The notes: generated from the letters alone by a model not told the origin. Shown: positions 9,055-43,816, numbered from the stretch's first letter. The stretch is 58,353 nucleotides of DNA from an uncultured Desulfatibacillum sp. (GCA_964562235.1 CAZLSV010000012.1:9263-67615); one strand, 5' to 3'. Numbers and translations are program-made.

Positions 9055-9067
9055 AAAGGAGGGTCTC

Positions 9068-10090: not shown

Positions 10091-10105
10091 TCAAGGAAGG
10101 GCCCC

Positions 10106-12232: not shown

Positions 12233-12245
12233 GAGGAGGCATACG

Positions 12246-13400: not shown

Positions 13401-13412
13401 TCGGAGGGGACC

Positions 13413-14579
13413 GTGCGAATTCGAATCCAAGCGATTCCGTTGACGTCGGTGTTCGAGGGCTTCCACCCGCGGCTGTGGGTGCTGGCGTTCATTGCCCTGG
13501 TGTTTATCAGCATCGCCTGGCTGGATATTACCCGCCCACCGCCCATCCGGCCCTCGTTCCATTCCATATTTTCATCGCACGAGGAGATGGGACAGGATTC
13601 CGAAACGCCCGAGCAGGAGCGCACTCCGTTGTTCACCGCCGGCATCCGCTCCGCCCCGCCGGAGGGGATCACCAAAGAGATCGGCGACTGCGAGCACAGC
13701 TTGACCGTCGATGTGGACGGCATCGGCCGACGCGAACGCGTTTGCGTGCGCACCGCCGTTTACAGAAATCGGGATGGACAGGCCCTCTACGATTCGCTGA
13801 TCGTGGACATCTATAAAAACGGGGACTGGCTTCTGCGCCAGGAACTCGATCGCGGCCTCTTTGGGGCGGAACGCTTTCACCTGCTGCGCGATCTCGACAT
13901 GGACGGCCGGGCGGAGCTCATCACGGTCCTTTCGGCCCGCCCGGAGGGCTCCGGCGAGGACGCCTGCCGGATCTACAAGTTCGACGGCTACGCCTTCGTT
14001 GAGGCTCTCCACGTTTTCGGCCTGCCCCCGCAGGATGCGTCGGTGGCCTTCTTCCTGCGCCACCTCCCCGAGATCCAGGCGGACATCAGCGCGCGCTATG
14101 CCGATGCCATCGCCAGCCCGGATCTGTGCGCGGACGCCGGCGATGAGGGCGACTGTTTCGCGGGCTCGCCCTGGCTGCTCGACTCCAACGGCGACGGACG
14201 CCTGGAGCTGGTCCAGCTGCTGGAGCCGCCCGACAGCCTCGAGAGTTCCAAAACCGGCCCGTTCCAGCTCTTCGTTAAGGAATTTAGGCGCCGCGGGATG
14301 GAGGGCCGAAGCCGCTTCCACGCGATGGGGCCGGGGCCCGCCGGCTCCAAAACTGGATCGATCCTCTTTCACCGATCAGACGACGGTCCGGTGATCCTGC
14401 TGGTCTCCTTTACCGATCCCGGCGCCCGGGCCGCCCGCGCCTCCTTGGTCGCTTTCGAAATCGCCGGAATCCGCGTGAAGAAAGCTCCCAGGCTCAGCGG
14501 CTTCGCGCTGCCCGGGCTCAACGAGCGGCTGCACTTCGCCAACAAAGAGGAGCCCCTGGAAACCCGGTATTTGAAGTGA
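13413..14579 (+). CDS. Membrane-anchored protein with FG-GAP/VCBS-like repeats
   Basis: GTG start after GGAGGGGA. N-terminal TM segment HPRLWVLAFIALVFISIAWL. Calcium-loop-like repeats LRDLDMDGRAELI and LLDSNGDGRLELV. Confidence 0.6.
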   Translation: MRIRIQAIPLTSVFEGFHPRLWVLAFIALVFISIAWLDITRPPPIRPSFHSIFSSHEEMGQDSETPEQERTPLFTAGIRSAPPEGITKEIGDCEHSLTVDVDGIGRRERVCVRTAVYRNRDGQALYDSLIVDIYKNGDWLLRQELDRGLFGAERFHLLRDLDMDGRAELITVLSARPEGSGEDACRIYKFDGYAFVEALHVFGLPPQDASVAFFLRHLPEIQADISARYADAIASPDLCADAGDEGDCFAGSPWLLDSNGDGRLELVQLLEPPDSLESSKTGPFQLFVKEFRRRGMEGRSRFHAMGPGPAGSKTGSILFHRSDDGPVILLVSFTDPGARAARASLVAFEIAGIRVKKAPRLSGFALPGLNERLHFANKEEPLETRYLK

Positions 14580-14721
14580 CGCTTATTGCCCTGCCCCGGG
14601 AGCAAGCTTCAATGAGTGAACCATGCGTGTTGTGCGGAAACGCAGGAGTGCGAGACCCGAATATCGAAATTCTATAACAACTTCGAATATCCAAATCGCC
14701 CGAATTCTAAACAACTGTTGA

Positions 14722-14758
14722 TTCCCCTCCCCTTGCGGGAGGGGCCAGGGGAGGGGAA
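14722..14758. repeat. G/C-rich palindromic intergenic element (family copy 1)
   Basis: TTCCCCTCCCC (14722..14732) pairs with GGGGAGGGGAA (14748..14758) around a 15-nt loop. It shares the CCCTCCCC/GGGGAGGGG theme with the elements at 31150 and 31910. Confidence 0.7.
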
Positions 14759-14867
14759 CATGCATGTTTTCAAGAGCGATCATCTTGAGGAGAAGCGATT
14801 CTATTTTCCGTTTTCGCCGCAGAGGCGCAGAGGATTTAATCTTTGCCGTTGCCCGGCATGGTTTGGT

Positions 14868-14895
14868 CCGCTGCCCGCAGGGCGAGCCGTTTTTT
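14868..14895 (+). terminator. Possible intrinsic terminator, part of a bidirectional hairpin region
   Basis: Imperfect hairpin CCGCTGCCC-GCA-GGGCGAGCCG followed by TTTTTT (14890..14895). TTTTTGAAC ... GTTCAAAAA (14891..14925) forms a second inverted repeat. Confidence 0.35.
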
Positions 14896-15198
14896 GAACC
14901 GCAGCCTCTCACGGCAGTTCAAAAAGAATTGTCCCCCTCGGCGTCCTCCGTGCCTCGAGCGCAGCGTGCGCTGAGCTGAACCCTTTTCCGGCGCGTGGTT
15001 ACAAGGTGTTTCATAACCCCGTCTGACGCCTGGGGGCGGCGTTGCCGGCCTCTCGAAAATGCTCACCACCCATGGCGGTGGCTCCGCTTTCCGAATCGGC
15101 CGGCGCCTTGACCGCAGACGTGATCCAGGGTTTTGAACCCACTTGTAGGCTTTCGGCTTTGGCAATCGATCAACCGCTCATGTAAAAGGAGATGGAGG

Positions 15199-16692
15199 AT
15201 GAAAAAGCAACCGCGGGTATTGCACCTGGTGTTTGCGCTGGCATTGTCTTTTCTGACGGCTTTTCACTCCGGATGCGGCGGCGGAGGCGGGGGCGACAAC
15301 GGTCAAACGGACAACGGGCCGTCTCCTCCACCCCCTCCAATCGCCTACCAGTTGTATGGACTGAACTTCAGCCCTTACGAGGGCGATCAAGACCCCAACC
15401 AGGGGGCGGTGGTGAGCGCCGAGCAGATCGAGCGGCGCATGCGCATCATAGCACCCTACACGAAATGGGTCCGAACCTTCGGCTGCACGCGCGGCCTCGA
15501 ACATGCCGGGGCCATCGCCCACCGCCTGCAGCTCAAGATCGCCATGGGCGCATGGATCGGCCCCGACCAAACCGCCAACGAGATCGAGCTGGATACCCTG
15601 ATCCGCGAGGCGCTCAGCGGCAACGTGGATCTGGCCGTCATCGGCACCGAGGTGCTTTTGCGGGGCGATGTGCCGCCAGCCGACCTGATCGCCTACATCC
15701 GGCGCTTCCGGCTGGAAGTCCCCAATGTCCCGGTGACCACCGCCGACACCTATGCCGATCTGCTCGATAACCCGGTTGTGATGGCCGCTTGCGATGTGAT
15801 CATAGCCAACTACTACCCTTATTGGGAAGGGGTGGATGTGAACAACGCCGTGACCTGGCTGCACGCCCGCCACCAACGCCTGGTGTCCGCGGCCGCCGGG
15901 AAAGAGGTGCTTGTTTCCGAAACCGGCTGGCCGAGCGCCGGCGACACCATCGCCGATGCTCTCCCCTCACCCGGAAACGCCGCGTTCTACTTCCAGAACT
16001 TCGTTTCGTGGGCCCGGGCCGAGGGGGTCGATTATTTCTATTTCGAAGCCTTTGACGAGAGCTGGAAGTCGGCCTACGAGGGGCCACAGGGCGCGGCCTT
16101 CGGGACATGGACCTCCGACGGGGAGCTGAAACCCGGCATGCAGGCGGTATTCGATGGCCAGACTGTGGCGGACAACTGGACCTGCATGGACATCCCGGGC
16201 GGAACAGGGACCCCAGCCGTCGAACTTACCGCTGTGCCGCCGATCGGCTCTTCATCGGACCTACGCGGCCAGGTGTGGCACGTCGCGCCCGCCAACTACG
16301 GAGTCGCGGTCTACATCAAGGTCCTCGGCGGATGGTGGACCAAGCCGTTCTGGAATGACCCGGTCACCTCGATCAACTGCGACGGCTCCTGGACATGCGA
16401 CATCACCACCGGCGGTGAAGATCCTCAGGCCACCGACATCGCCGCCTTCCTGATCCCGCTGGCCTACACGCCGCCAACCGCCGCCGGGGAGGGAGTGCTG
16501 CCGGTCGAGCTCTACACGAACAGCATGGTGTATGTTGAGGTGAAGCGGGATTTATCATCGCCGGCAATCGGGGCAGGGAGAAAAATAAATTACTTTGCCG
16601 AATCCAAGGAGAACTACAAAAACATGTTGCCGCTCCACTTGCTCAACAATCACTGTGCTGAGAAGTTTTCAGCAAAAACACCAATACGCTGA
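15199..16692 (+). CDS. Glycoside hydrolase family 17-like (beta-1,3-glucanase/transglycosylase) lipoprotein
   Basis: Lipoprotein signal MKKQPRVLHLVFALALSFLTAFHSGC. GH17 signature LVSETGWPSAG. ATG 15199 follows AAAGGAG; the track ORF starts at 15133. The last ~45 codons are encoded by AT-rich DNA unlike the rest of the gene. Confidence 0.7.
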   Translation: MKKQPRVLHLVFALALSFLTAFHSGCGGGGGGDNGQTDNGPSPPPPPIAYQLYGLNFSPYEGDQDPNQGAVVSAEQIERRMRIIAPYTKWVRTFGCTRGLEHAGAIAHRLQLKIAMGAWIGPDQTANEIELDTLIREALSGNVDLAVIGTEVLLRGDVPPADLIAYIRRFRLEVPNVPVTTADTYADLLDNPVVMAACDVIIANYYPYWEGVDVNNAVTWLHARHQRLVSAAAGKEVLVSETGWPSAGDTIADALPSPGNAAFYFQNFVSWARAEGVDYFYFEAFDESWKSAYEGPQGAAFGTWTSDGELKPGMQAVFDGQTVADNWTCMDIPGGTGTPAVELTAVPPIGSSSDLRGQVWHVAPANYGVAVYIKVLGGWWTKPFWNDPVTSINCDGSWTCDITTGGEDPQATDIAAFLIPLAYTPPTAAGEGVLPVELYTNSMVYVEVKRDLSSPAIGAGRKINYFAESKENYKNMLPLHLLNNHCAEKFSAKTPIR

Positions 16693-17629
16693 GATCTGTC
16701 ACGGACAGCGCCAGTGAGTTCCTCCTTGGTTAAAATACCGGAGGGCACGTACATTGATATTTCGCTTATGAAAATAACCAGTTGTCCAGGTTATGCAAAT
16801 TTTACATTTCGTATAGGTTTCGGCTCCTGCTTTTGGTTTTCTCGAACGGGTCCCACCTCCCAATCCACCCGGCGGAGACACTCTTTTAGCTCGACTACAC
16901 TATTTTGCTTTTTGGGTGGTGTAGTCTTCCAATCTTTAGGTGGCCGGCCGACTGCCAGGAAACAATCAACTGCTGGATACACCATTTTTTCCTTTAAACA
17001 CAACTTTTAATAATTGCTCCGGTGAAGTTTACAGACATCGACTAAGTTCTGGAACTATTTGGAAATCAGGGCATTCAGCTGATTCGAACCGACAGGTATA
17101 AAGTGGTGTAACTATGTGGCATCTCACCTTTTCAATTTTTTTCTTGATTTTACTTTGCTGGTTCGCTTATCTTAGCAATGTAGTTTTTCTCATAATTCCA
17201 TCGGGCCTGAAGCGACTTTTTTTGGTTTCACTGAACGGTTCGGACCTCATTTCTCCATCTGTTTGTCTCGAATAATGCTCCTTTAAATATTCCTTGAATT
17301 TTGCACCAAGTAGATATTTTTTGTTTTCATCGTGAAAAAATATCTTGCACGGAAGTCCGCCAGCATAGGGTGTTCACCAGTTGCCTTGTGTATGTGCCAG
17401 AGTTATGGCCTCGCTGGCAGGTGACTGCGTATAGTGGAAATGTGCCATTCTCTTATTTTGTGGCAGCCATGCAGCGGAGCACAATCACACCCACGGAAAA
17501 CAGATGCCTGCCAATAGCGAGCTCTTATCACTAATTCGACGTGTTGGAGAAGTTTCTACATCCTTGTGGGTTACGGCATAGGATTACTCTGCCGGGTAGC
17601 GGTTTCGTCCAACAATTAGGAGGAAAATC

Positions 17630-20523: not shown

Positions 20524-23500
20524 ATGCATGCAAATCCTCGATTTCCTGCAACGGCAAACCGACGCGTGCGAGTATTCGTGTCCTCGACGTTCCAGGACAT
20601 GGTCGAGGATCGCAATGAGCTGATGAGCCATACGTGGCCGCTCCTCCGTGTCTTCTGCCGAGAGCGACAGGTGGAACTGGTTGAAGTGGATCTGCGCTGG
20701 GGGATCTCTGAAGAGCAGAGCGAACGCAATGAAACACTGATATTGTGCTTAAACGAGATCCGCGCGTGCCGCCCGTTCTTCATCGGTCTCCTCGGCGAGC
20801 GCTACGGTTGGATTCCGAGTAAAAAGGCATTCACGCCGGACCTGCTTCAGGAGCAGCCATGGATTTCCGAGTCCGCGCGAAAGAGCATCACCGAGCTCGA
20901 GATTATGCACGGTGTGCTGAACGACCCCAATAGGGCGTTGCACGCGTTTTTCTATTTCCGCGACCCAGTCTATGCGGGCAACCGTGGGTGTGGGTTCTTG
21001 CCTGAGGACGCAGAGTCCGCGGTTCGCATGGGCTCACTCAAGGAGCGCATCAGAGCCGTGTGCGCCAAGGGGAAAATCACGCTGCACGAAGACTATTCCG
21101 GACCACGCGAGCTGGGGGAAGTCGTCCTGCAGGATCTCAAGGCGGCTATCGGAGCATGCTTTCCCGCGGAGGAAATCCCCGACCCTCTTACGCGCCAGGC
21201 GCTCGATCACGAGGCCTTGGCTGAGATCCTCCGCCGCACCTATGTCGCTTGCCCGGCCTATTTCGATAGGCTCGACAAGCTCGCGCTGGATTCAAGCCTG
21301 CCGCTGGCGGTGATCGGCCCTTCTGGCAGTGGAAAGTCGGCGCTGCTTGCGAACTGGATCCAGCATTGGCGGCAGGCGCAGCCGAACGACTTCGTTTTTC
21401 AGCACTTCATTGGAGCTACACACGACAGCACCGCGCATTGGGAAATCGCACAGCGACTCATCGGCGAAATCGCGCGATGGATAGGCGACGAAGATGATTT
21501 GCCACGTTCGCAGCCGGAAATTCTGAATGCTCTCCCGCACTGGTTGGCAAAAGCGCGAGCCAAGGCAGAACGGGATGGTGTGCGCTGCATCATAGCGTTG
21601 GACGCACTGAACCAGCTCAACGATCAAGACCACGCTCAACACCTCGGATGGCTACCAGAGGCCGCGCTCACGGGACCGCTTCGGCTCGTCGTCTCGACGA
21701 CGGGCGGCGACTCGCTCCGGGCTGTAGAATCACGAAAATGGGTCTGCTTGCCGATCAAGCCGCTAAAGCCAGGAGAATGCCGCAGCATGATCACTGGTTA
21801 TTTAGCTCTTTTCGGTAAGAAACTCGATGAGCGGCGATTGGAGCGCCTCGCTCTTACACCGACTTCAGGAAGTCCGCTGTACCTGAAAATCCTTCTCGAC
21901 GAATTGCGCGTGACGGGTGTTTACGACCGGCTGGATGAACGTCTGGATGATTACATTTCCGCAAGCAACATCCCAATGCTGCTAAGACAGGTATTGCGGC
22001 GATACGTGAACGATTACGAACGCGATCGTCCGGGACTCGTCGGCGAAGTCCTGGAACTCATTCGCGCCGCGCGCCGCGGACTTACCGAGGCTGAGATTCT
22101 CCGCCTGGTGCGGCCGGCGGATCTCCCGCAGTTGCCGCCTGCCGTTTGGGCACCGCTGCGAGCAGCGCTCGAAGAGGGTCTGGTAGATCGAGGCGGCGTT
22201 CTGAATTTCGCACATGATTTCCTGCGCACAGCGGTCAAGGAGGAGTTCGGGCTGTCTGGATCCATGACAGAACTGCGGCTGCGACTGGCAAAGGAATTCG
22301 AAGCGCAACCCGTATCCGCGCGAAGCTGCGAAGAGCTGCCCTGGCTGCTGTATCACACCGGCCAGTGCGACCGGCTGCGGCTTTGCTTGCTTGAGATCGA
22401 TCGTCTGATCGAAATTGAAAAGCGGGATGTGCAGGAACTGATGCACTACTGGATTTGGCTGGGCGAGGAGAGGACGATGGGGTGCGCGTACCTCGCTCCA
22501 TTTCGTGCCTGGTGCCAAGTAGTGCGCAACGAAGAAGCGCTGGCCTACGGTGCAAGCCATGTCGCATATTTTCTGAACGCAGCGGCGCTCTATTCGGAGG
22601 CGGAGCCGATCATGCGCGAAGTACTGGAGATGGTCGAGCAACGTCTTGGGGCGGATCACAAAGATGTGGCGCCGCACCTAAACAACCTCGCGCTCTTGCT
22701 CAAGGCCAGGGGTCGGCTCCGCGACGCCGTGCCCATGATGGAGCGCGCGTTAAATATCGCTGAGCGGTACTATGGACGCGCGCACCCCAACGTGGCAACC
22801 GCCCTGAATAATCTTGCCCAGTTGGTCGGTGAAAAAGGTGATCCTGCAGAGGCTGAGCGGATGATGCGGCGCGCGCTGGAGATCGACGAGGCGGAGTACG
22901 GCCCGGAACACGCGAAGGTCGCAACCCGCCTGAGCAATCTCGCGCAATACCTCCCGGCGCGCGGGTCGAAGGAGGCCGAGCAAATGATGCGTCGTGCGCT
23001 GGAGATCGACAACAAACGCCTCGGCAAGGATCACCCGGTCGTTGCAATCCGTTTGAACAACCTCGCGCAGTTTCTTCTTGCAACGGGCCGCCTGGGAGAA
23101 GCGGAACCAATGATGCACGAGGCGCTGAGAATCGACGAGCGAAGCCTCGGCAAAGCTCACCCCACAGTGGCGATTCGGCTCGGCAACCTGGCCCAATTGC
23201 TCCAGGCCAAGGGCCACTTCGACGAAGCCGAGATTCTGATGAAGCGAGCGCTCGAGATCGACAAACTTTGCCTCGGACCTGACCACTCTGACGTGGCGGC
23301 GGATCTCGCTGCCCTAGGCAGGTTGTACCAGGCTGGAAACCGGCTGACTGAGGCCGAGGCGAATCTCCGCAGCGCCATTCAAATAATCGAACGCAGTTCC
23401 ACGCGGAACTATCATAGGCTATTGGCCATCCTGGATCAACTCGCGCAAGTCCTCTACGAAGCTGACCGGTCGGAAGAAGCTGCTAACCTGACCAACAGAG

Positions 23501-24180
23501 CGATGCAAATTGCACAAGAGCGTTTCGGGCCGGAACACCCGAACACCGCCGAGCGCATGGACACCCGAGCGCGGTTGCTTCATGCCTGTGGTGAACTGGA
23601 GGAGGCGCAGACGCTTATGCGCCGTGCGCTGAAGATAGCGGAGGCACAAGTACCACCCCAGCCTATCGTGATAGCCAGCCGCCTCCGTAACCTTGCGCTT
23701 CTTCTGCACGACGACGGCCAGCTCCCGGAGGCCGCGTCGTTGTTTCGCCGCGCGTTGGAGATGTCAAAAGAAATTTATGGGTTGGAAGACCCGGAGGTTG
23801 CAACCTGCCTAGGAGACCTTGCCCGTCTGCTTCACGACTTTTCTGGGGGCGAGCTGGCGGAAGCGGAACACCTCTTACGCCGCGCAGTGACAATCAACGA
23901 GCGTAGATACCCCATAGATCATCCGGCCATGGTCGCGGACCTGAAGTCGATGGCGCGGCTGTTGAAAAAGACGGGCCGGCTCGCAGAGGCGAAAATCCTC
24001 ATGCGCCAGGCGTTAATAATCGACATCGACCGTTACGGCAAAGCCAGCCGGATTGTCTCTGACGACATTGATTGGATAGTACAGTTAGGGAGGTCTGAAC
24101 GCGAGGACCTGCACAGCGAATTGTCCGGTGATAAGAAGTTTCCTTTCTTCCATCCTGCCGAGCACATATTACAAAAATAA
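20524..24180 (+). CDS. STAND NTPase: DUF4062-like N-terminal domain, NACHT/P-loop domain and a TPR array
   Basis: 1218 aa. N-terminus RVRVFVSSTFQDMVEDRNELMSHTWPLLRVFC...LLGERYGWIP (DUF4062 pattern). Walker A VIGPSGSGKSALLANW. Walker B-like CIIALDALNQLND. About 12 kinesin-light-chain-type TPR units follow (…HPNVATALNNLAQL…AEAERMMRRALEI…). Confidence 0.85.
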   Translation: MHANPRFPATANRRVRVFVSSTFQDMVEDRNELMSHTWPLLRVFCRERQVELVEVDLRWGISEEQSERNETLILCLNEIRACRPFFIGLLGERYGWIPSKKAFTPDLLQEQPWISESARKSITELEIMHGVLNDPNRALHAFFYFRDPVYAGNRGCGFLPEDAESAVRMGSLKERIRAVCAKGKITLHEDYSGPRELGEVVLQDLKAAIGACFPAEEIPDPLTRQALDHEALAEILRRTYVACPAYFDRLDKLALDSSLPLAVIGPSGSGKSALLANWIQHWRQAQPNDFVFQHFIGATHDSTAHWEIAQRLIGEIARWIGDEDDLPRSQPEILNALPHWLAKARAKAERDGVRCIIALDALNQLNDQDHAQHLGWLPEAALTGPLRLVVSTTGGDSLRAVESRKWVCLPIKPLKPGECRSMITGYLALFGKKLDERRLERLALTPTSGSPLYLKILLDELRVTGVYDRLDERLDDYISASNIPMLLRQVLRRYVNDYERDRPGLVGEVLELIRAARRGLTEAEILRLVRPADLPQLPPAVWAPLRAALEEGLVDRGGVLNFAHDFLRTAVKEEFGLSGSMTELRLRLAKEFEAQPVSARSCEELPWLLYHTGQCDRLRLCLLEIDRLIEIEKRDVQELMHYWIWLGEERTMGCAYLAPFRAWCQVVRNEEALAYGASHVAYFLNAAALYSEAEPIMREVLEMVEQRLGADHKDVAPHLNNLALLLKARGRLRDAVPMMERALNIAERYYGRAHPNVATALNNLAQLVGEKGDPAEAERMMRRALEIDEAEYGPEHAKVATRLSNLAQYLPARGSKEAEQMMRRALEIDNKRLGKDHPVVAIRLNNLAQFLLATGRLGEAEPMMHEALRIDERSLGKAHPTVAIRLGNLAQLLQAKGHFDEAEILMKRALEIDKLCLGPDHSDVAADLAALGRLYQAGNRLTEAEANLRSAIQIIERSSTRNYHRLLAILDQLAQVLYEADRSEEAANLTNRAMQIAQERFGPEHPNTAERMDTRARLLHACGELEEAQTLMRRALKIAEAQVPPQPIVIASRLRNLALLLHDDGQLPEAASLFRRALEMSKEIYGLEDPEVATCLGDLARLLHDFSGGELAEAEHLLRRAVTINERRYPIDHPAMVADLKSMARLLKKTGRLAEAKILMRQALIIDIDRYGKASRIVSDDIDWIVQLGRSEREDLHSELSGDKKFPFFHPAEHILQK
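22540..24045 (+). repeat. Intragenic tandem array of ~126-bp (42-aa) TPR units
   Basis: Recurrent DNA and peptide units, e.g. ATGATGCGGCGCGCGCTGGAGATCGAC / ATGATGCGTCGTGCGCTGGAGATCGAC encoding MMRRALEID, spaced about 42 codons apart. Confidence 0.75.
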
Positions 24181-24267
24181 AACTATCACTGCCGTACAGA
24201 GGCGTTTAACCGCAGTTTTCATCTTCTCCCCCTCTTTTGGTTTATCATAAGCCTCGATTGTTTGCTG

Positions 24268-25347
24268 CTACGAAAAGTCTAACTCGGATGCCAGGGCGTT
24301 TATCTTGCTGTAATTTCGATTTTCATAAGGTTTGGAGTATTCTTCAAGGATCTGCAGCATTCGGGGGTGCATAAGGCACTGTCGAGCGACATTGCAGTCC
24401 TTGCAGGTGGTCTTCCCGGCAACGCCGATTTTCCCGACCCCCGCGAGCTCCCCCGAGCCGGCGGCTTTGATCACGGTTCCCAAACCTTGGGGCTCGACCC
24501 AGAATGCCAAGTGACAGTGCAGCGCCTCCACTTCAAGCCAGTCGCCTGCTTCCAAGGTCACGCAGCGCCACGTCCGCACCCCCCGCTCGGTCATGGGCTT
24601 GTGCCATACCTGCAAGCGGCCCTCGATGACACCGTAGATCTCGACCGCGGGTAGCCCGTGGACATGGACGTCCTGCTTGTCCCTCGGGGTGAAGAAGCTC
24701 CAGGTAAAGCCAAGGCCCTGCTTCTGGTAGGGAAGATAGGGGTCGGCCACGCGCAGGTTGAAAGCACGGTCGCCGGCCTCCAGAATGCCGCGGATGTCAG
24801 CCCCTTTCACATGCCGAACCCCGCCCTTGTTCCGGCCGGCCCAGTGAGAGGCCAGGGCGTCCATGCTGGGCTGCGAATAGGCGGAGTTTAGCAATTCCGG
24901 GTGCCGTTGTAGAATGAATCGGGCGATGGCGCGAACGTTCGGTTCTTTGGCGTTCTGCAGGATCTCATCCAGAGTCCACCAGACCGATTCACTCCCGTCA
25001 ACCTTCACAGAAGCAGCCGCCTCAGGGGTCAGCGAAACATCGACCGGGTAGAGAAACCACTGCTTGGTGAGCCCCGGATACCGCGGGCTCTCCCCCTCGT
25101 TCGGAATCATCCCAAGCTCGTTCTCAGGATAGTAGCTCAGCGGTGGAAGTCCAAGATCCTCCTCCATGGGACGGGCGAGCGCCGAGTATAGCCCCTCTCC
25201 CTGCCTGAACCTGGTCGGCGGAAAAGTCAGGTGCCCCTGCTTGCGAAGCATTAGAAATCGAACCGACCCTTTCTCATGGGCTCTCGTTCTAATGAGGCAA
25301 TAGAGCACAAGAGAGGCTCTATGATTTTCCAGTACGCCAGTCTCCAC
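24268..25347 (-). CDS. Nudix-like domain fused to a cupin domain, third gene of the TIR operon
   Basis: GTG start after AGGGGGA. Partly degenerate Nudix box GEGLYSALARPMEEDLGL. Cupin motifs DVHVHGLPAVEIYGVIEG and GDWLEVEALHCHLAF. Cys-rich tail CKDCNVARQC. Confidence 0.7.
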   Translation of the reverse strand: METGVLENHRASLVLYCLIRTRAHEKGSVRFLMLRKQGHLTFPPTRFRQGEGLYSALARPMEEDLGLPPLSYYPENELGMIPNEGESPRYPGLTKQWFLYPVDVSLTPEAAASVKVDGSESVWWTLDEILQNAKEPNVRAIARFILQRHPELLNSAYSQPSMDALASHWAGRNKGGVRHVKGADIRGILEAGDRAFNLRVADPYLPYQKQGLGFTWSFFTPRDKQDVHVHGLPAVEIYGVIEGRLQVWHKPMTERGVRTWRCVTLEAGDWLEVEALHCHLAFWVEPQGLGTVIKAAGSGELAGVGKIGVAGKTTCKDCNVARQCLMHPRMLQILEEYSKPYENRNYSKINALASELDFS

Positions 25348-25398
25348 CCCTATCCCCCTGAATTCGCCTAATTTGTAAATGCGGTAAATTTCCGAGAA

Positions 25399-27543
25399 TC
25401 AAATGGCATTCGGGAATTGGGACAATTTCTCGGAAAGATCCGAAGGCTGCCCGGTGGTGGATTTTACGGATTTCCAGAAAATTCCCTCTTTCGGTATCCT
25501 CTTCCTGCCCAACACAACCAATTCCAGCGGGATCATGACATACTCGGTCAACCATTGGCTTATCATAAAATCCCGGTATCCAGCCATTGAACCATCCACC
25601 GCCAAGCACCCCAATCTTTCACCAAATATGATATCGGCGGAACTCGGCGGAATTGACCGTATGAGATGTCGCGGTTCATTTTTGAATACACGAAATTCCT
25701 TCCAATACCCGCCCCTGTTATTGAGTGCTTCGCGGAGCGAGTTGGTTATAATCTTGATCCCGGCGCTTCGCAATTCATCGGGGGTCTGTCCCTTGACCCT
25801 ACATCCGTTTTCAAAAAATTTTTGTACTTCTGCGATCTCTTCGGCATTCATTTTAGCTGTTCGTATCGTTTCGGTTTCGAGAGCATCCGTTGGCAATGCC
25901 GTTTCCGCCAGCAGGACTATACCATATGGAGTTTTTGCCTCCGGCCCTTGGGAATATCGCTTTTCAAGTTTCTCGATAATATAGTCAACGACTTTTGTGG
26001 TCTTGAAGGGGTGCTCCGGAATAAGCACTAAATCGCATACCCCGCTGGCGATGGCCGCATGAGTTACGACAAAGCCGGAATCAGACCCAAACAATTGGAT
26101 GATACAAATTCTGGGGTTGGAAGTGACTTCGGTGTATATTTGCCGAATGGCTCCCGTCGCCCATTCTACAGCTGACAGGAATCCAAATGATTGCCAGACC
26201 CAAAGTATGTCATTGTCCATGGTTTTGGGGATCCCGATTATCGCTATTCCCTCATCCCTCTCTGCCGTCAACTCTTTTCTTTCTTTCGCCAGTTCTCTGG
26301 AAAAATTTGACAATGCATGCGCAGCCCGCATGCTTCCGTCACCTCCGATAATATATAAAATATTGATTTCATCATTTCGCAATCTGTCAGCAACCTCTCT
26401 TAAATGGCTCCCACGATTCAATGGATTCATCAAATCATCGGCCCTGGATGTGGGAATAATGGAACCCCCCTCGTCAATCTTCGTGTAAATTGTCTTTTCG
26501 AGCCAATTGGGGTTGCGGTCTCTGCCATGAACATGGGTTGAATAAAGCACTTTTCGCCGTGCCCCCAAGAAATTCCGCATCAGTGATTTAAACCCTTCAA
26601 GGTACCCATAAATCGTAAGGTTATAGTGAGGTTGCCCGCCGTTGTCGGCGGTGGAGTCGTACAGAACGTGCCTTTTGATGATACCCGCGATGACCGCATT
26701 TATCCCAGGTGCGATTCCTCCGGAGACCACAATTCCCACGTTCAGAGATCGGCTGGGCCTTGGGAAATGCAGAAATTTTCGTGGCCCCGCCTCCGGGAAT
26801 GTCAATTGCAGCTTTGTCAAGCATTTTGAGCCGTCATTGGGGTGGTACTCGGAGAGAGCCGCCGGCACGACGCGGGGATCCTTGGGCTTGTCCGTTGCTG
26901 AGTCGACATCCCGGTAGGCCCCGATTTTGTCTTCAGAAACCGGATTGATGGTATTGCCCTCTACCCTATCAATGATCGGCCACTCAATCGGGCACCCCTG
27001 CTTAACCCTTTCAATAGACAGTGTTCCATTACCTCTAATAAACTCTTTGATTATGTCTTTCTCATAATCAAAGGGATAACCGATCGGCAACCCATCTTCC
27101 GATGTCCACCCCAGTTTTAAAATCCGCATGAGCTCTTTTGCGCATCGCAGTGCCTCACCCTCAATGTGTTTCATAAAATTTTCATTTACGACAATCGCTG
27201 TTAGATCCTCCAGTTTTTTGAAAAGATCCTTTTGTTCATTTGACGGGCTTAAAGGAATCGATTGCTTGTAGTTCGGAAGCTTTATCGGAATGATGACTTT
27301 GTTCAAATTGTTAGCCCGGGTCAGTTCTTCAAATTGTATCAGACCCAGTTCTGTGCCCCAGAAAAAAATAAAAAAATCACAATCGTCGATTTCTTTTTTT
27401 AATTGTTCTTTAAAAACTCCCGCCTCCCCCGACTCATTCCAATAGAAAAATTCAACGGATGGTTGTTTTTTTATAAAAAAAAGAAGTTTGCTTGAGAAAA
27501 TTTCTTCTTCTGATTTGAACTTGTAGCAAAAGAAAAACTTCAT
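25399..27543 (-). CDS. TIR-like N-terminal domain fused to a phosphofructokinase-family (PFK) domain
   Basis: 714 aa. N-terminus FFFCYKF...DCDFFIFFWGTELGLIQFEEL follows the TIR-type beta-alpha pattern. PFK motifs: GIVVSGGIAPGINAVIAG, YIIGGDGSMRAAHAL, IIGIPKTMDNDI, SFGFLSAV. The SD GAGGGG overlaps the upstream gene's stop. The DNA is AT-rich. Confidence 0.8.
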   Translation of the reverse strand: MKFFFCYKFKSEEEIFSSKLLFFIKKQPSVEFFYWNESGEAGVFKEQLKKEIDDCDFFIFFWGTELGLIQFEELTRANNLNKVIIPIKLPNYKQSIPLSPSNEQKDLFKKLEDLTAIVVNENFMKHIEGEALRCAKELMRILKLGWTSEDGLPIGYPFDYEKDIIKEFIRGNGTLSIERVKQGCPIEWPIIDRVEGNTINPVSEDKIGAYRDVDSATDKPKDPRVVPAALSEYHPNDGSKCLTKLQLTFPEAGPRKFLHFPRPSRSLNVGIVVSGGIAPGINAVIAGIIKRHVLYDSTADNGGQPHYNLTIYGYLEGFKSLMRNFLGARRKVLYSTHVHGRDRNPNWLEKTIYTKIDEGGSIIPTSRADDLMNPLNRGSHLREVADRLRNDEINILYIIGGDGSMRAAHALSNFSRELAKERKELTAERDEGIAIIGIPKTMDNDILWVWQSFGFLSAVEWATGAIRQIYTEVTSNPRICIIQLFGSDSGFVVTHAAIASGVCDLVLIPEHPFKTTKVVDYIIEKLEKRYSQGPEAKTPYGIVLLAETALPTDALETETIRTAKMNAEEIAEVQKFFENGCRVKGQTPDELRSAGIKIITNSLREALNNRGGYWKEFRVFKNEPRHLIRSIPPSSADIIFGERLGCLAVDGSMAGYRDFMISQWLTEYVMIPLELVVLGRKRIPKEGIFWKSVKSTTGQPSDLSEKLSQFPNAI

Positions 27544-27555
27544 AATTTTTCCCCT

Positions 27556-28623
27556 CTATATTTTTTTGATAATACTGACAATTGATTTCAAAACAAATTT
27601 CCTTGAGTTGGCAGCCCCACCCGGTTGTGTTTTCAGCAATTCCCCAATCTCCCGGTCGAACAGTTCCAGTTTCGCCTGGATGCTGGGTGCATGACGAGTA
27701 AAAATCGTCTGCTGGTAGCCTCCTCCGATAGCCGCCGATACGGATTCGGCCAAAAACCAGTTGCCCACCATGGTGATGTTGCTCGAGGTCGGCATTCGCT
27801 CGCTGACCGCTACTCGCACGAGATGATCCGGCATGGATTCCAGGAATGCCAAAAGCTCCGTCAAGCGGACTTTTCTGGCGACTTCTCCATACTTGCTGTA
27901 AGTCAAGGAAGGCTTGATAATTAGGCTGCACCCGGACTGGCGGGCATGCTCCTCGAGCGCCAGTCGTTCTTCGCGTTGCAACCGGCACCGGTAATCGCCG
28001 GGCTTGAGAGGCCCATATCGCGCTTCCCAATCCGGATGAGTGATCGGCTTGTCGGGTATGTGGAAGGAACTGAGGGCTCCTTTTTGCCTCACATGTCCGT
28101 GGGCGCCCAGCTCAAGGACCTTCTTGGCATAAGCCACCATCATAGTTGTTCTCTCTTCCTGGTACTGTGCGCACTCAAACAGCGCCTGTGATTCCAACTG
28201 CGCGCGCCGCACCAGGGAGTCGAACACCTTAATGTCCAATTTCGGTTTGTTGATCCGGCGCCAATATTTTCCCTCTTCCCACCGGACGGCCTGCAGCTCC
28301 TGGATCATCGCTCCCGGCATCTGGCCGTTGCTGATCGGCAGCACCGGTATGTTCAGCGCCATGGCATAACCGATTTCCTGGTGAACCCAACCGCGGCTGC
28401 TGGATTCCTTGGTGATGACCGGCATGAAAACGTGGGCGTGGGAGATGAAATTCTTGATTTGGTTTGTGAAGCCGTGTCCAGATGAAAAGCTTCTATCCAG
28501 CATGGACTGCAGACCGTTTTCCTCCAGAATGGTGGAGATCCGGTCCACTAATTCCGCATCTTGGTGGGAATAGCTGATGAAAACCCGGTATTTGTTTTCT
28601 TCTTCAGCTCTGTGGTTCACCAT
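27556..28623 (-). CDS. TIR-domain protein with an unassigned ~220-aa C-terminal domain, first gene of the operon
   Basis: YRVFISYSHQDAELVDRISTILEENG ... HVFMPVITKESSSRGWVHQEIGYAMALNIPVLPI is a TIR_2 pattern with Glu in the W..E position. I recognised no family for the rest of the protein. Confidence 0.8.
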   Translation of the reverse strand: MVNHRAEEENKYRVFISYSHQDAELVDRISTILEENGLQSMLDRSFSSGHGFTNQIKNFISHAHVFMPVITKESSSRGWVHQEIGYAMALNIPVLPISNGQMPGAMIQELQAVRWEEGKYWRRINKPKLDIKVFDSLVRRAQLESQALFECAQYQEERTTMMVAYAKKVLELGAHGHVRQKGALSSFHIPDKPITHPDWEARYGPLKPGDYRCRLQREERLALEEHARQSGCSLIIKPSLTYSKYGEVARKVRLTELLAFLESMPDHLVRVAVSERMPTSSNITMVGNWFLAESVSAAIGGGYQQTIFTRHAPSIQAKLELFDREIGELLKTQPGGAANSRKFVLKSIVSIIKKI

Positions 28624-28905
28624 AACGACTATTTTGCTGGCCCCGGTGGTTCAGCGCATGCCTCTTCAAAGCGAAGAGGTTAAAAAGCAAACTTTTGACG
28701 GCTGCCGAGAAGAGCGCAGAAAATGAAAAAAGCGCTCGTATTTCGCATCGTTGGAAAGGGACAAATAAAGTCTGACACCAACTTTACATCAATGCGCAGG
28801 CCGGTGTGCGGCCGAAGAGTCAGGCGGTAGGGGGGCGGATATCCGACCGAAACGGACAGAGACATCAGCCAATCCCAAAGGGTCTTGGGGTTCATGAGGA
28901 GGGAT

Positions 28906-28939
28906 GAAAAACGTGCTCCGTCCTGAGCACCGACGGAGC
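28906..28939 (-). terminator. Intrinsic terminator of the 28979..29242 gene
   Basis: The minus strand reads GCTCCGTC-GGTGCTCAG-GACGGAGC followed by ACGTTTTTC. It separates the core gene from the TIR operon promoter region. Confidence 0.6.
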
Positions 28940-28978
28940 ATGTCTTCCATTATTTTATAGACCTGAAAAAGTCAAGCC

Positions 28979-29242
28979 TCAGCAGGTGAACGGGTAGAAG
29001 TGATGGTAGCAGTAACCGCCGGGGTCGCCGTAGGCCACTTCGACGTCCGCCAGGCAGGAGCCGATCGCCTCTTTTGAGACATCCTCGTAATCGGGCCGCT
29101 TCTCCTCGGCGCGTTTGCAGGGCAGGCAGATCGGCTCGTGATCGTAGACCGAGAGGATGCGCTGGTCTTTCGGGGCTAGCTTGGCGTTGCAGCGATGGCA
29201 TTGGGTCGCGCAGGAGAGTTTTTCCTTCCAGCTTTCGGACAT
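28979..29242 (-). CDS. Small Cys-rich (zinc-ribbon-like) protein
   Basis: 87 aa with CATQCHRCN ... ICLPCK Cys pairs. RBS GAGGAG. GC-rich like the core genome. Confidence 0.55.
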   Translation of the reverse strand: MSESWKEKLSCATQCHRCNAKLAPKDQRILSVYDHEPICLPCKRAEEKRPDYEDVSKEAIGSCLADVEVAYGDPGGYCYHHFYPFTC

Positions 29243-29370
29243 GGGAGGCTCCTCGAGAGAGTTTTACGTTTCAAGTTTTAAGTTTTAAGTTAACCACGAA
29301 CGCCCCCAGGTACAGGGGAATATTGATCCGGACGAAGCGCAGTGCCGAAGTCGGGCTTTCGGCGAGGTCG

Positions 29371-29583
29371 TCATTTTTTCTTCATAAAATCCTGCACCAG
29401 CTCCTTCATGATGTCAAGCAGGTTGCCGCCGCGCTCCTTGGCGATGCGGTGGGCGTCGTCGACGATCCTGCCGGCCTGCTGCCGGATCTCGCCCTCGGAG
29501 GGCGCCGTCAGTTTCTGCTTCTCGTACTGCCAGCGCAGGAATCGCGCCGCCAGTTTTTCTTCCTGATTTCTGAAAAATCCCAT
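29371..29583 (-). CDS. Small conserved-looking hypothetical protein (70 aa), translationally coupled to holA
   Basis: MGFFRNQEEKLAARFLRWQYEKQKL...DIMKELVQDFMKKK. Its ATG lies 2 nt after the holA stop. It is the only credible part of the 569-aa track ORF 29371..31080. Confidence 0.55.
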   Translation of the reverse strand: MGFFRNQEEKLAARFLRWQYEKQKLTAPSEGEIRQQAGRIVDDAHRIAKERGGNLLDIMKELVQDFMKKK

Positions 29584-29585
29584 GT

Positions 29586-31055
29586 TCAGCCCTTCGGCGG
29601 AGCGGACGCGCACATCTTCAGAACGACCCGCTCCAGAATCAGGCGCGGCGCGATGGGCGATGACTTCAGCTTCAGGTCGGCCTCGTTCGCCGCCTCCAGC
29701 GCCGCCAGCAGTTCGGCCGGGCTGAAGCGGTCCGATTTTTTCAAAAGCTGGTAAACCGGAAACGCATTGGCGGGCGATTTGGCCATCACCAGGTCCGTGA
29801 CGGCCTTGGTCTTTTTCTTCTTCTCCCCGCCGGTCTCCGGGTCCGCCAGGGCTTTGTCCCAGCCCTCCAGGCGGGCCAGGAGGTCGCGGTCGTACTGCAC
29901 GACGGCCGGCATGACGTTCTTCTGGAACTGAGGGTAGCTGCAGCCCGGATTCCAGGCCGCGCCGGCCGGGCTCGAGGTGAAATCCTTGGCCACGATCAGC
30001 TTGCGCACCTGGTTCACGATGGCCGCCAGCGCCTGCAGGCCGTGAATCTCGCCCGCCAGCAGCGCCTTCAGGAAAAAGAGCGCCTTTTCCGCGTCCCGGT
30101 CCGTGACCGCGTTGGTGAATTCGAACAGGGGGTCCTTCTTGGTGCGCGTGAGGGCCGCCCCCACGTCCTCGGGCGTGATCTCGCGGCGTTCGCCGGCGTA
30201 ATCGACGAGGGTCCGCAGGTTGTTCGAAAAGGTGCCGGGCTCGAAGCCGGTCGTCTCGCAGAGGGCCAGGAAGGCCGCGCGGCTCATGGTTTTGCCGGAA
30301 GGCCCGAGGATCGCCTTCATGTGCTCGGAGAGCACCGCCTCCTGGGCCTCCTTGTCGGCCTTGCGCTCGCCCGTGGGCACCGAGCAGTCGACCACGACCC
30401 CTTTTTCGCGAATGAGTTTGTAGAGGCTGCGCCGCCGATCGGCGATGTCCGTGGCGATGATGAGGTGGTGCCCCTTCGGAAAACCGTTTGCGACCGCCTG
30501 CTCCAGAAGGCCGGCGGCGTCTGCCCCCGCCGGAACCGTGAGGCGACCGGAGGCGCAGTGCTCCAGGATGCGATCGATCCAGGCGTCGTCCTCTCCCGGA
30601 TCGTATCCGGAAGGCAGGAGTTCCGAGCGGCTCGAGGCTTTCACCTCCTCCAGGGAGAGTTTCAACTGGGCCAGCAGCGCCAGGAAACGCCGGGCGGCGC
30701 GGGGCAGGTCGCCCTCGGACTGGGCCTCGCGGGCGCCGGCCAGCAGCTTTCCGGCATCCTCCCGAGTGTGAAACAGCCGCGCATCCTTGAGGGCCACGAC
30801 CTTGGTCCCCCCCAGCAGAGAGTAAGTGTTGAGGCTTGCCACCACGTCGCCGATCCCGGCCGCGGCGCCGTCGAACGGTTCGTAGTTGAGGCTCTCCTGG
30901 GCGCCGGGAAGGAGGCAGCGCAGGACCTCGTCGAAGGCCATGCGGACGAACAGTTCCTCGCCGTGGATCAGGTGCACGGCGGCCGGGGCGCGCAGGGCCG
31001 GCGGCTCGATGCTTTCGAGGTAGGTCCTGAACTCCTGGTAGGTGATTTCGGGCAT
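29586..31055 (-). CDS. holA: DNA polymerase III delta subunit (HolA-like), long form
   Basis: The N-terminus (AVHLIHGEELFVRMAFDEVLRCLLP ... NYEPFDG) and overall helical clamp-loader pattern are typical of HolA. At 489 aa it is longer than the usual ~340 aa. Confidence 0.65.
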   Translation of the reverse strand: MPEITYQEFRTYLESIEPPALRAPAAVHLIHGEELFVRMAFDEVLRCLLPGAQESLNYEPFDGAAAGIGDVVASLNTYSLLGGTKVVALKDARLFHTREDAGKLLAGAREAQSEGDLPRAARRFLALLAQLKLSLEEVKASSRSELLPSGYDPGEDDAWIDRILEHCASGRLTVPAGADAAGLLEQAVANGFPKGHHLIIATDIADRRRSLYKLIREKGVVVDCSVPTGERKADKEAQEAVLSEHMKAILGPSGKTMSRAAFLALCETTGFEPGTFSNNLRTLVDYAGERREITPEDVGAALTRTKKDPLFEFTNAVTDRDAEKALFFLKALLAGEIHGLQALAAIVNQVRKLIVAKDFTSSPAGAAWNPGCSYPQFQKNVMPAVVQYDRDLLARLEGWDKALADPETGGEKKKKTKAVTDLVMAKSPANAFPVYQLLKKSDRFSPAELLAALEAANEADLKLKSSPIAPRLILERVVLKMCASAPPKG

Positions 31056-31062
31056 GAGAAAT

Positions 31063-31094
31063 AAGGGTCCAAGGGGTCAAGGGGTCGAGGGGTT
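31063..31094. repeat. 8-bp tandem microrepeat (4 units) just upstream of holA
   Basis: AAGGGTCC AAGGGGTC AAGGGGTC GAGGGGTT. Confidence 0.8.
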
Positions 31095-31149
31095 TTTCCT
31101 CTGCTTAGTGGCCTTTTTCATAAATACCATCACGAATTGCGCCACACCG

Positions 31150-31196
31150 CCACCCTCTCCCTGCCCTCCCCCTGAGGAAAAGGGTTAGGGTGGGGG
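31150..31196. repeat. G/C-rich palindromic intergenic element (degenerate family copy 2)
   Basis: CCACCCTCTCCCTGCCCTCCCC...GGGTTAGGGTGGGGG shares CCCTCTCCC and GGGTTAGGGTG-GGGG with the perfect copy at 31910..31965. Confidence 0.55.
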
Positions 31197-31266
31197 TAGC
31201 GCGACGCATGTGGCCGTATTCATGAAACGATGTACTTAGGGATCGACCCCCCCCATTTTTCCCTGC

Positions 31267-31303
31267 ATAAGAATCCGGCCTTCGGTTCAGGCCGGATTCT
31301 TAT
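31267..31303 (-). terminator. Perfect 14-bp hairpin spanning the lspA stop codon (probable U-tract-less terminator or mRNA stabiliser)
   Basis: ATAAGAATCCGGCC-TTCGGTTCA-GGCCGGATTCTTAT. The stop codon lies in the loop. No T-run follows on either strand. Confidence 0.4.
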
Positions 31304-31772
31304 GGAAAAGGAGGTGAAAGGCGAATATGAAAACGCCGATCGTGATGGCGCTGTCGGCGACGTTGAAGGCCGGCCAGTGCAGGTCCCCGACGTACACGTC
31401 GAGAAAATCCACCACGACCCCGAAGCGGATGCGGTCCACCAGGTTGCCGACCGCGCCGCCGAAGACAAGGGCCAGCCCGCAGGCGAGCAGCCGCTGGCCG
31501 GGCGGCGTCTGCCAGTAGAAACAGACGATCAACCCGGCCGCCAGCAGCGACACCGCGATGAACAGCAAGCTCCGGTACTCGTCGCTCATGCCGGCCAGAA
31601 ACCCGAAGGCTCCGCCCGGGTTGTGGACATGGGTGATGTCGAAAAACCCGGGGATGACCGGCACGCTCCGGCCGAGCGGCAGCCGGGCGAGAACCAGCGC
31701 CTTCGTGACCAGGTCCAGGATCAGGACCGTTCCGGAGACCCCGGCCAAGGTGATGAGTTTTTTCGAAAACAT
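31287..31772 (-). CDS. lspA: Lipoprotein signal peptidase II
   Basis: LDLVTKALV, PGFFDITHVHNPGGAFGFLAG, GGAVGNLVDRIRFGVVVDFLDV, WPAFNVADSAITIG. The ATG at 31772 gives 161 aa; the track ORF extends to a TTG at 31856. Confidence 0.9.
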   Translation of the reverse strand: MFSKKLITLAGVSGTVLILDLVTKALVLARLPLGRSVPVIPGFFDITHVHNPGGAFGFLAGMSDEYRSLLFIAVSLLAAGLIVCFYWQTPPGQRLLACGLALVFGGAVGNLVDRIRFGVVVDFLDVYVGDLHWPAFNVADSAITIGVFIFAFHLLFHKNPA

Positions 31773-41993: not shown

Positions 41994-42046
41994 TGTTGAA
42001 TGGCGTTAAAGCCGTTGGGAGGTCATGTCGGTTAAACCGAAAAAAG

Positions 42047-43543: not shown

Positions 43544-43816
43544 GGTTGGCGGTGAATATCAACATGGCTGTTCCCGTGGCCGCACCTCGTTGTATCCGAA
43601 TACATGAACAGGGTCAATTTTCCCACTCAAGGGTCAAGGCGCAAGCGACCCACCTGAAGGTGGTATTCACCTCCCCTGTGACCTTCGGAGAATTACGGTC
43701 ACCTTTGTCCCCGGATCCGGCGCCCCGTTTGCGATCGTCAGCAAGGTGATCCTGGATAGACGCACTGATGATATCTCCTTTTGGAATATTATTGAGGCCC
43801 ATCAAAGGGCCTTCTT

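Follow-up and report, generated by a model that had tools for sequence, protein, structure and literature searches.

What does a phosphofructokinase (PFK) with a TIR-like head do between the gene for a TIR protein and the gene for a Nudix-fold protein? The question is raised by three adjoining genes, here called g1, g2 and g3, at positions 24268-28623 of a stretch of DNA from an uncultured Desulfatibacillum sp. (GCA_964562235.1 CAZLSV010000012.1:9263-67615), the whole of which, 58,353 nucleotides (nt) long, is called the window below. Immunity in bacteria, plants and animals relies centrally on TIR enzymes and on the signals that they derive from nicotinamide adenine dinucleotide (NAD), and the known bacterial receivers of TIR signals are few (SLOG, Macro, SAVED and STING). 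An original prediction, made from the window's sequence, had proposed that the three genes form an undescribed immune system working with a nucleotide signal. We find that g1-g2-g3 is a real, horizontally acquired operon. We tentatively place it, at a little short of an even chance, within a recurrent gene set that centres on TIR domains and ADP-ribose-type (ADPR-type) nucleotides, in NAD-derived signalling. Its purpose may be anti-phage defence or the regulation of carbon flux.

Layout and composition of the operon

Open reading frame (ORF) calls and a reading of the junction give the following features.

27556-28623, minus strand: g1, 355 amino acids (aa)
27544-27555, minus strand: g1-g2 junction, 12 nt
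25399-27543, minus strand: g2, 714 aa
24268-25347, minus strand: g3, 359 aa, GTG start

The predicted layout, three minus-strand genes with gaps of 12 nt (g1-g2) and 51 nt (g2-g3), is what the ORF calls return. The sequence AGGGG directly follows the g1 stop codon TAG and lies eight bases ahead of the g2 ATG, forming the Shine-Dalgarno sequence of g2 (TAGAGGGGAAAAATTATG). It thereby overlaps the g1 stop, as had been predicted, which implies translational coupling. The region is also as atypical in composition as was claimed, with a GC content of 0.44-0.53 across 25-28 kb against ~0.63 in the surrounding DNA. At third codon positions (GC3) the values are 0.51 for g2, 0.66 for g1 and 0.71 for g3, against 0.83-0.90 in the adjoining core genes holA, lspA and ileS. 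With an overall GC of 0.46, g2 is foreign in composition.

Just upstream of g1, an 87-aa cysteine-rich ORF (28979-29242; CHRC and CLPC motifs) matches no Pfam family and is 95% conserved in the related locus L164.

Conservation of the cassette in close relatives

Loci of relatives carry numbers with the prefix L. The order holA, g1, g2, g3 is kept in L164-167, where g2 is 100% identical to that of the window. In L163 (g2 81% identical) a g1 paralogue is followed by g1, g2, g3 and a TIR-NB-ARC protein, with other flanks, and in L168/169 the order is TrkA/TrkH, g1, g2, g3. Between L168 and the window, g1 is 81% and g3 79% identical, while g2 (at 11100-13169 in L168) reaches only 52%, so a TIR-PFK was kept between the same partners and its allele replaced. 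The low identity to L168, taken together with a GC3 below that of g1 and g3, suggests that the middle gene of the cassette has been replaced.

g1, a TIR protein with the catalytic glutamate

28279-28590, minus strand: TIR domain of g1, residues ~12-115 (Pfam, PDB profile)
27559-28266, minus strand: C-terminal domain of g1, ~235 aa, conserved alpha/beta, no assigned function

The TIR pattern noticed at the start of g1, with its glutamate at the position used by NAD-cleaving TIR domains, is confirmed by Pfam, by PDB profiles and by invariant residues. Pfam TIR_2 matches residues 14-115 at 1.3e-15, Pfam ThsB_TIR matches at 2.8e-4 (21.6 bits against a cut-off of 21.2) and the PADLOC ThsB model at 2e-8. 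A family profile of 32 homologues finds only TIR domains in the PDB, namely those of TLR6, a bacterial TIR, Cat1 and SARM1, and W79 and E83 of the WVHQE motif are invariant in the alignment. The AlphaFold2 (AF2) model has a pLDDT of 87, and Foldseek matches it to the SARM1 TIR domain at TMt ~0.7. g1 is a TIR protein carrying the catalytic glutamate, and it is predicted to cleave NAD+. The family has 726 matches of ~350 aa in several phyla.

The C-terminal domain shares the motifs GHVRQKGALSSFHIP, GCSLIIDP, VGDWFxAES and QTIFTRHAP across the family and has no relative in Pfam or among PDB profiles. SPARTA TIR-APAZ is at the top of the Foldseek matches of g1, and an APAZ-like identity for this domain was considered and is not claimed, given a TM-score of 0.28, a root-mean-square deviation of 25 Å and E-values no better than those for the TIR domain alone.

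g2, a TIR-like/PFK fusion below the NCBIfam PFK cut-offs

27199-27543, minus strand: TIR-fold head of g2, residues ~1-115 (hhalign, AF2/Foldseek)
26806-27198, minus strand: linker/N-extension, residues 116-246, with the conserved motif DGLPxGYPFxYEKDII..GCPxxWP
25402-26805, minus strand: PFK core, residues 247-714 (Pfam PFK)

The N-terminus of g2 had been called TIR-like from its beta-alpha pattern. The window protein has no Pfam match of its own in this part, and PF13676 (TIR_2) is precomputed in about half of the g2 homologues listed. Alignment of the g2 and g1 families by hhalign places residues 1-89 on the g1 TIR domain (probability 90%, E 1.4e-6) and sets the nearly invariant E73 of g2 on the catalytic E83 of g1. 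In the AF2 model of residues 1-246, residues 1-115 form a confident TIR-type fold and residues 116-246 are less ordered; Foldseek matches this model to the TIR domains of SPARTA, SARM1, SpbK and RUN1 (best E 1.3e-5). These results uphold the TIR-like call, and both N-termini in the operon are TIR folds with the position of the glutamate kept in each. The head matches equally well the N-glycosidases DNPH1 and BcmB and nucleoside 2-deoxyribosyltransferases (NDT).

The PFK core had been described as complete. Pfam PFK (PF00365) matches residues 268-650 at 1.4e-45 (156.3 bits against a cut-off of 30.9), and the closest solved structure is the PFK of T. brucei (2HIG, E 4e-58). Residues were mapped on E. 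coli PfkA, with its numbering matched to positions in the literature. Equivalents of R72, D103 (in GGDGS), T125, D127, D129, R162 and E222 are retained, as are those of H249 and R252 when mapped through the alignment with T. brucei PFK. The triplet M169-G170-R171 reads F-G-S in g2, with the serine invariant in the TIR-PFK family; the arginine of this MGR motif is one that we take to be conserved in characterised PFKs. The fold and most catalytic residues therefore stand as described, and M169 and the MGR arginine do not. With the residues for phosphoryl transfer and sugar-phosphate binding almost all intact, g2 is probably an active kinase, though not a textbook PFK.

By the NCBIfam models g2 does not group with housekeeping PFKs. 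All 11 NCBIfam PFK models score it under their cut-offs, the best, PRK06830, at 213.7 bits against 400, and together with the lost MGR arginine the family has signature motifs of its own, ILWVWQSFGF and NEPRHLIRS. A search returned 1237 homologues of g2; nearly every one of the best 120 is a fusion at full length, 650-750 aa, and the source annotation names these proteins simply '6-phosphofructokinase'. Across Acidobacteriota, Chloroflexota, Planctomycetota and Desulfobacterota the family is 40-50% identical. A profile of the N-terminal module, run against 1.84 billion representative proteins, matched 216 at E <= 1e-10, nearly all PFK fusions or fragments; effector swapping of the module was looked for and none was found among the 216.

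g3, a degenerate Nudix fold with a metal-site motif

24913-25320, minus strand: Nudix-fold N-domain of g3, residues ~10-145 (Pfam NUDIX in homologues)
24448-24768, minus strand: cupin-like region, residues ~194-300, with invariant H228, H230, E236 and H279
within 24364-24405, minus strand: C-terminal CxxCx5C, residues 315-324 (alignment)

On the window protein Pfam NUDIX scores 1.4e-3, under its cut-off, and PF00293 (NUDIX) matches 25 of 29 homologues, at best with 3.3e-7. The Nudix box reads T-x5-E-x7-R-P-M-E-E-D-L-G-L against the consensus GX5EX7REUXEEXGU, so that REUxEE has become RPMEED: the first glycine and the glutamate of 'RE' are lost, and the second glutamate of 'EE' is an aspartate. 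Further along, H228, H230, E236 and H279 are invariant in the family and stand in cupin spacing when the alignment is read by eye, and some homologues bear the JGI name 'cupin superfamily'. The family is a small one of 404 matches, with 54-83% identity among the best 120. Gene callers often place the start at Met61; the 60 aa before it are conserved in L168, which indicates that the long ORF is real.

A recurrent gene set with RyR domains

Seventy non-redundant TIR-PFK loci were assembled from metagenome contigs with a family-specific motif and from loci already collected. A scan of genome contigs with the full alignment returned mostly ordinary PFKs, which serve as the control set, and true family members only at L003-L007 and L010. 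The immediate neighbours of TIR-PFK are very variable across the family, and certain partners recur around TIR-PFK and around homologues of g1 and g3.

L097: RelA/SpoT-RyR, u191, TIR-PFK, g1 and Nudix genes, contiguous
L170: Nudix, RelA/SpoT-TPR-RyR, RyR, TIR-PFK and g1 genes, contiguous
L010 (Bacteroidales): RelA/SpoT-RyR, Nudix and g1, then TIR-PFK
L005, L006, L160, L155 and L150: sigma-54-type AAA, TIR-PFK, u191 and a ~950-aa AAA-RyR protein, not all genes in every locus
L172 (g3 family): DUF4062-STAND, RelA/SpoT-RyR, Nudix, g3-like and TIR genes
L173 (g3 family): g3-like gene overlapping TrkA_N-RyR, flanked by two TIR/DUF4062-STANDs
L178 (g1 family): TrkA_N-RyR, 472 aa, RyR, g1-like
L177 (g1 family): WYL regulator and g1-like gene, amid transposases and a PemK toxin

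Two of the three loci L005, L006 and L160 are annotated as Acidobacteriaceae-type. Of the 24 TIR-PFK loci that span 12 kb or more, 6 are matched by a profile hidden Markov model (HMM) of the RyR domain, against none of 50 ordinary PFK loci (p = 7e-4); for RyR or g1 the counts are 10 of 24 and 0 of 50 (p = 3e-6). The sole RyR match among the control loci, L010, is itself a TIR-PFK locus. In the neighbour-joining tree of the TIR-PFK family the partner genes are scattered, and g1 sits next to TIR-PFK in no fewer than four separate branches. RyR proteins also accompany TIR-PFK where g1 is not present (L005, L160, L155, L150 and L117), and at L001 the context of TIR-PFK is a toxin-antitoxin pair, a patatin and a TIR gene. 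A neighbourhood of TIR, Nudix and defence genes is found in part: all three families turn up repeatedly alongside TIR, RyR, Nudix, RelA/SpoT and STAND genes, and many TIR-PFKs sit in housekeeping or galU contexts.

Two 2026 preprints report that RyR/Repeat12 (PF02026) proteins of phages bind 2'cADPR and 3'cADPR, which are TIR products, or in one instance cleave them, and that the ligand is contacted by an H-x-x-W pair and an aspartate (PMC13232231; 10.64898/2026.06.04.730250). Cellular RyR domains near TIR-PFK retain EHxRW and Y-D at matching spacing, and could thus plausibly receive a signal made by TIR proteins, in a logic like that of Thoeris.

Two further proteins are frequent near TIR-PFK in L005, L006, L160, L155, L150 and L097: the ~190-aa u191 and the ~950-aa P-loop protein that ends in RyR repeats. 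A sigma-54-type AAA+ gene often lies divergently upstream of TIR-PFK in those loci.

Surroundings of the operon in the window

1407-4079, minus strand: RelA/SpoT-TPR-RyR protein, 890 aa (Pfam RelA_SpoT 1.7e-16, RyR 2.1e-10)
4310-4768, plus strand: small canonical Nudix hydrolase, 152 aa (Pfam NUDIX 4.4e-13, PADLOC PDC-S07 1.5e-9)
4820-6562, minus strand: sigma-54-type AAA+ protein, 580 aa (Pfam Sigma54_activat 2.3e-59)
6772-14579, plus strand, convergent to the operon: five-gene block, an AAA_2 ATPase (760 aa) followed by proteins of 340, 709, 355 and 379 aa
16577-24178: strain-specific segment of 7.6 kb with peptidoglycan-binding, SurA-like peptidyl-prolyl isomerase, HupE/UreJ and STAND genes
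20524-24180, plus strand: DUF4062-NACHT-TPR STAND (Pfam)

Members of the recurrent set are present in the window itself. The protein at 1407-4079 matches PADLOC PDC-S33 at 2.4e-15 and the RyR HMM at 1.2e-36, and it retains EHGRW and YD; in L097, L170 and L010 its homologues are direct neighbours of TIR-PFK and g1, and in L172 of a g3 homologue. The Nudix gene is divergent from it, with homologues in the same four clusters. Homologues of the sigma-54-type AAA+ protein adjoin TIR-PFK in L005, L006, L114, L122, L123 and L160. PADLOC RtcR_PspF2 matches its AAA part at 3.7e-85, and no domain is assigned to residues 1-198 or to the C-terminal ~440-580; the N-domain could be a ligand sensor. The AAA part is also matched by models of the RtcR/PspF-type CARF_AAA_HTH kind, one of which reaches residue 502 in the C-terminal region.

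The five-gene block may be tied to the operon. In L164 and L168 it again adjoins the g1-g2-g3 cassette, and homologues of its 379-aa protein (u379) closely follow TIR-PFK, in convergent orientation, in L121 and L122 and occur in L123, which also holds homologues of the 709-aa (u709), 340-aa (u340) and AAA_2 proteins. The 340-, 709-, 355- and 379-aa proteins match no Pfam, NCBIfam or PADLOC family. The AAA_2 ATPase is ClpA/ClpV-like.

The STAND NTPase that had been noticed next to the operon is present with its DUF4062, NACHT and TPR parts, but it belongs to a strain-specific insertion. A blastn comparison of the window with L164 gives matches at 8688-16576 and 24179-31770 only, and in L164-167, which are otherwise 95-97% identical, the segment 16577-24178 is replaced by a 0.9-kb stretch with a gene for a 300-aa TIR-like/Zn-ribbon protein. 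The last 40 aa of that protein persist as a remnant at 16702-16818 of the window (tblastn). With the segment missing from near-identical contigs, the STAND is taken to have arrived recently, and the reading of it as an original partner of the operon was rejected. Only L104 carries a homologous NACHT region, and other TIR/DUF4062-STANDs lie near relatives in L163, L172 and L173.

At 42000-46000 the window has a second stretch of lower GC (0.52-0.56). It holds ordinary metabolic genes (a pyridoxal phosphate-dependent decarboxylase, a LysR regulator and an isocitrate/isopropylmalate dehydrogenase) and is not an island of the operon's kind.

Interpretation and alternatives

In the reading that we prefer, g1, and possibly also the TIR head of g2, would convert NAD+ to an ADPR-type signal. 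RyR-domain proteins would receive it, the candidate here being the RelA/SpoT-RyR protein at 1407-4079, and the small Nudix hydrolase, perhaps with g3, would bind the nucleotide or turn it over. In g2 the PFK core would phosphorylate a furanose-phosphate, which may be fructose-6-phosphate or the ribose-5-phosphate end of an ADPR-type product; alternatively it could act as a tetrameric scaffold that senses metabolites and so activates the TIR head. Of the immune system as originally proposed, a conserved TIR-centred cassette with a nucleotide-signalling set remains, while the trio is lineage-restricted and the link to the STAND incidental.

A number of findings weigh against this reading. Among the 70 TIR-PFK loci, g3 is present in 3, all in the window's own clade, and g1, traced by its C-terminal domain, in 7 (6 of the 24 loci with 12 kb or more), which rules out the three-gene unit as a universal system; the co-conservation of the three genes holds with different flanks in L163, L164-167 and L168/169 but extends no further than this lineage. 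The RelA/SpoT-RyR protein lies ~20 kb from the operon in the window, and the correspondence between its kind of RyR domain and the ligand residues of the phage proteins is drawn from spacing alone. The degenerate Nudix box argues against a simple hydrolytic clearing role for g3. No cupin is found in g3 by Pfam in 29 homologues or by PDB profiles with the full protein or the C-terminal region, so that of the proposed Nudix-cupin fusion the Nudix fold stands in degenerate form and the cupin is a metal-site motif. Since nearly all matches of the g2 N-terminal module are PFK fusions or fragments, the module is not common to other effectors. A phage origin of TIR-PFK was considered and dropped, with no copy in IMG/VR viral contigs, and no PADLOC model matches g2 or g3.

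Genomic context weighs on the same side. TIR-PFK stands alone amid housekeeping genes on three long contigs, L174, L175 and L176; in L175 it lies between mfd and an NTP-transferase gene, followed by purE and purD. In eight non-redundant loci it is adjacent to a true galU, the gene for UTP-glucose-1-phosphate uridylyltransferase, which precedes or follows it. Stop and start codons of the two genes overlap in L108, L110, L120 and L125, and further galU-linked loci are L083-L085, L156 and L175. With 339.7 bits the L125 galU exceeds the TIGR01099 cut-off of 326.8, and the remaining galU genes share 47% identity or more with it; a distant NTP-transferase is found at three further TIR-PFK loci. This adjacency hints at a sugar-nucleotide link for the family. 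The window's own NTP_transferase gene near ileS was considered as a galU and proved to be RmlA, so that the window is without a galU link. The Acidobacteriaceae-type TIR-PFK loci look vertically inherited.

These contexts, the vertical look and the lack of a PADLOC model make a metabolic or regulatory role a serious rival, although we regard it as rather unlikely. TIR-PFK would then be a glycolytic or sugar-phosphate kinase isoenzyme whose TIR-like head is regulatory or oligomerising, for example by sensing NAD+ or ADPR, and in the operon a TIR N-glycosidase, a Nudix-fold/cupin sugar-phosphate enzyme and the kinase would make up an NAD/ADPR-linked module that is not immune. Such a role would suit the near-complete conservation of PFK catalytic and substrate residues across phyla, a large family holding 40-50% identity over four phyla, an N-terminal module found with PFK only, the absence of viral copies, the DNPH1, BcmB and NDT matches of the g2 TIR fold, and a g3 family that is unusually conserved, at 54% identity or more among its best 120 matches. 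It fits poorly with the foreign composition of g2, the exchange of its allele between otherwise similar cassettes, the significant association of TIR-PFK with TIR, RyR, Nudix and RelA/SpoT genes, the toxin-antitoxin, patatin and TIR context of L001, the invariant serine in place of the MGR arginine (presumably conserved in characterised PFKs) and scores under every NCBIfam PFK cut-off. We also know of no metabolic pathway that uses a TIR enzyme.

The conserved glutamate in the TIR fold of g2, and the SPARTA and SARM1 TIR domains as best structural matches of its head, would also suit a single-protein effector like TIR-SAVED, TIR-STING or SPARTA, in which the PFK part senses and oligomerises, the TIR head depletes NAD+, and g1 and g3 are accessory. 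PFKs are obligate oligomers with allosteric transitions, TIR-PFK is often found alone, and RyR proteins occur with it in loci that lack g1. We nevertheless consider this decidedly unlikely, as the strict conservation of the catalytic base and the phosphoryl-transfer residues suggests that the kinase is catalytically used, housekeeping and galU contexts would be odd for a suicide effector, and the N-terminal module is not swapped among sensors, unlike in the TIR-SAVED and TIR-STING families. Very improbable, in our view, is that three unrelated accessory genes have met in a variable island. The 7.6-kb segment that near-identical contigs lack, and the occurrence of g3 and g1 elsewhere without TIR-PFK, would fit a chance assembly; it would leave unexplained the 12-nt gap with a Shine-Dalgarno sequence on the stop codon, the order g1-g2-g3 in three contexts with different flanks and across the exchange of the g2 allele, and the adjacency of g1 and TIR-PFK in several tree branches.

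Relation to known systems

The original prediction had placed a TIR-PFK fusion outside the known defence systems, and this agrees with the PADLOC models and with the literature searched, in which we found no description of TIR-PFK fusions or of cellular TIR/RyR systems of such kind. The closest likeness is to Thoeris: g1 is a stand-alone TIR protein with a catalytic glutamate that matches ThsB models, relatives carry two or more TIR genes at a locus (in L163, TIR-PFK together with two g1 paralogues), and the loci hold proteins with the RyR domain, which binds Thoeris signals. Unlike Thoeris, no SIR2/SLOG or Macro/TM ThsA is present among g2, g3 and the scanned neighbours, and the partners, as read from the genes, comprise a PFK fusion, a Nudix/cupin-like protein and proteins with RyR domains. 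With TIR-SAVED, TIR-STING and the TIR-APAZ of SPARTA, g2 shares an N-terminal TIR fold on a larger oligomerising protein, and in structure both g1 and the g2 head best match the TIR domains of SPARTA TIR-APAZ and SARM1. In those fusions the partner is a cyclic-nucleotide sensor or an Argonaute partner, whereas in g2 it is the complete fold of a metabolic enzyme, its catalytic residues almost all intact.

Among PFKs, g2 resembles the ATP-dependent T. brucei/PRK06830 type (2HIG, 3F5M) in its SGGxxPGxN, GGDG(S/T), PKT(I/M)DND, PE and xxIR motifs and, like T. brucei PFK, has an N-terminal extension with an AGPR motif. It differs from this type by the extra 246-aa TIR-plus-linker module, the change of MGR to FGS and its own signature motifs. 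The cellular neighbours of g1, g2 and g3 homologues share PF02026, with H-x-x-W and Y-D kept, with the phage anti-Thoeris RyDEP/RyR Tad proteins; in contrast to these, the RyR domains here are cellular and fused to RelA/SpoT, AAA and TrkA_N modules, which suggests a receiver or effector role and not that of a sponge. PDC-S33 (RelA/SpoT-like) and PDC-S07 (Nudix), matched by the genes at 1407-4079 and 4310-4768 whose homologues flank TIR-PFK and g1 elsewhere, are PADLOC defence candidates with no established mechanism, and neither of them extends to g1, g2 or g3.

Significance

More than 1000 TIR-PFK fusions thus form a family that is genetically linked to TIR, Nudix and cellular RyR-domain proteins. 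If this link is functional, it would amount to a new Thoeris-like system, in which RyR domains are the receivers and a kinase step is included, or alternatively to the first central glycolytic enzyme under TIR/ADPR control. A more far-reaching version, which we think unlikely, is a cellular network in which TIR proteins of the g1 type and the TIR-PFK head make glycocyclic ADPR (gcADPR, the ligand of the phage RyR domains) for RyR receivers fused to RelA/SpoT, AAA or TrkA_N modules, and in which the PFK couples the signal to sugar-phosphate chemistry, by phosphorylation of an ADPR-derived ribose phosphate or by a switch of glycolytic flux. If true, such a network would be a prokaryotic counterpart of the animal cyclic ADPR/ryanodine-receptor axis and a new Thoeris-like type of immune or regulatory system.

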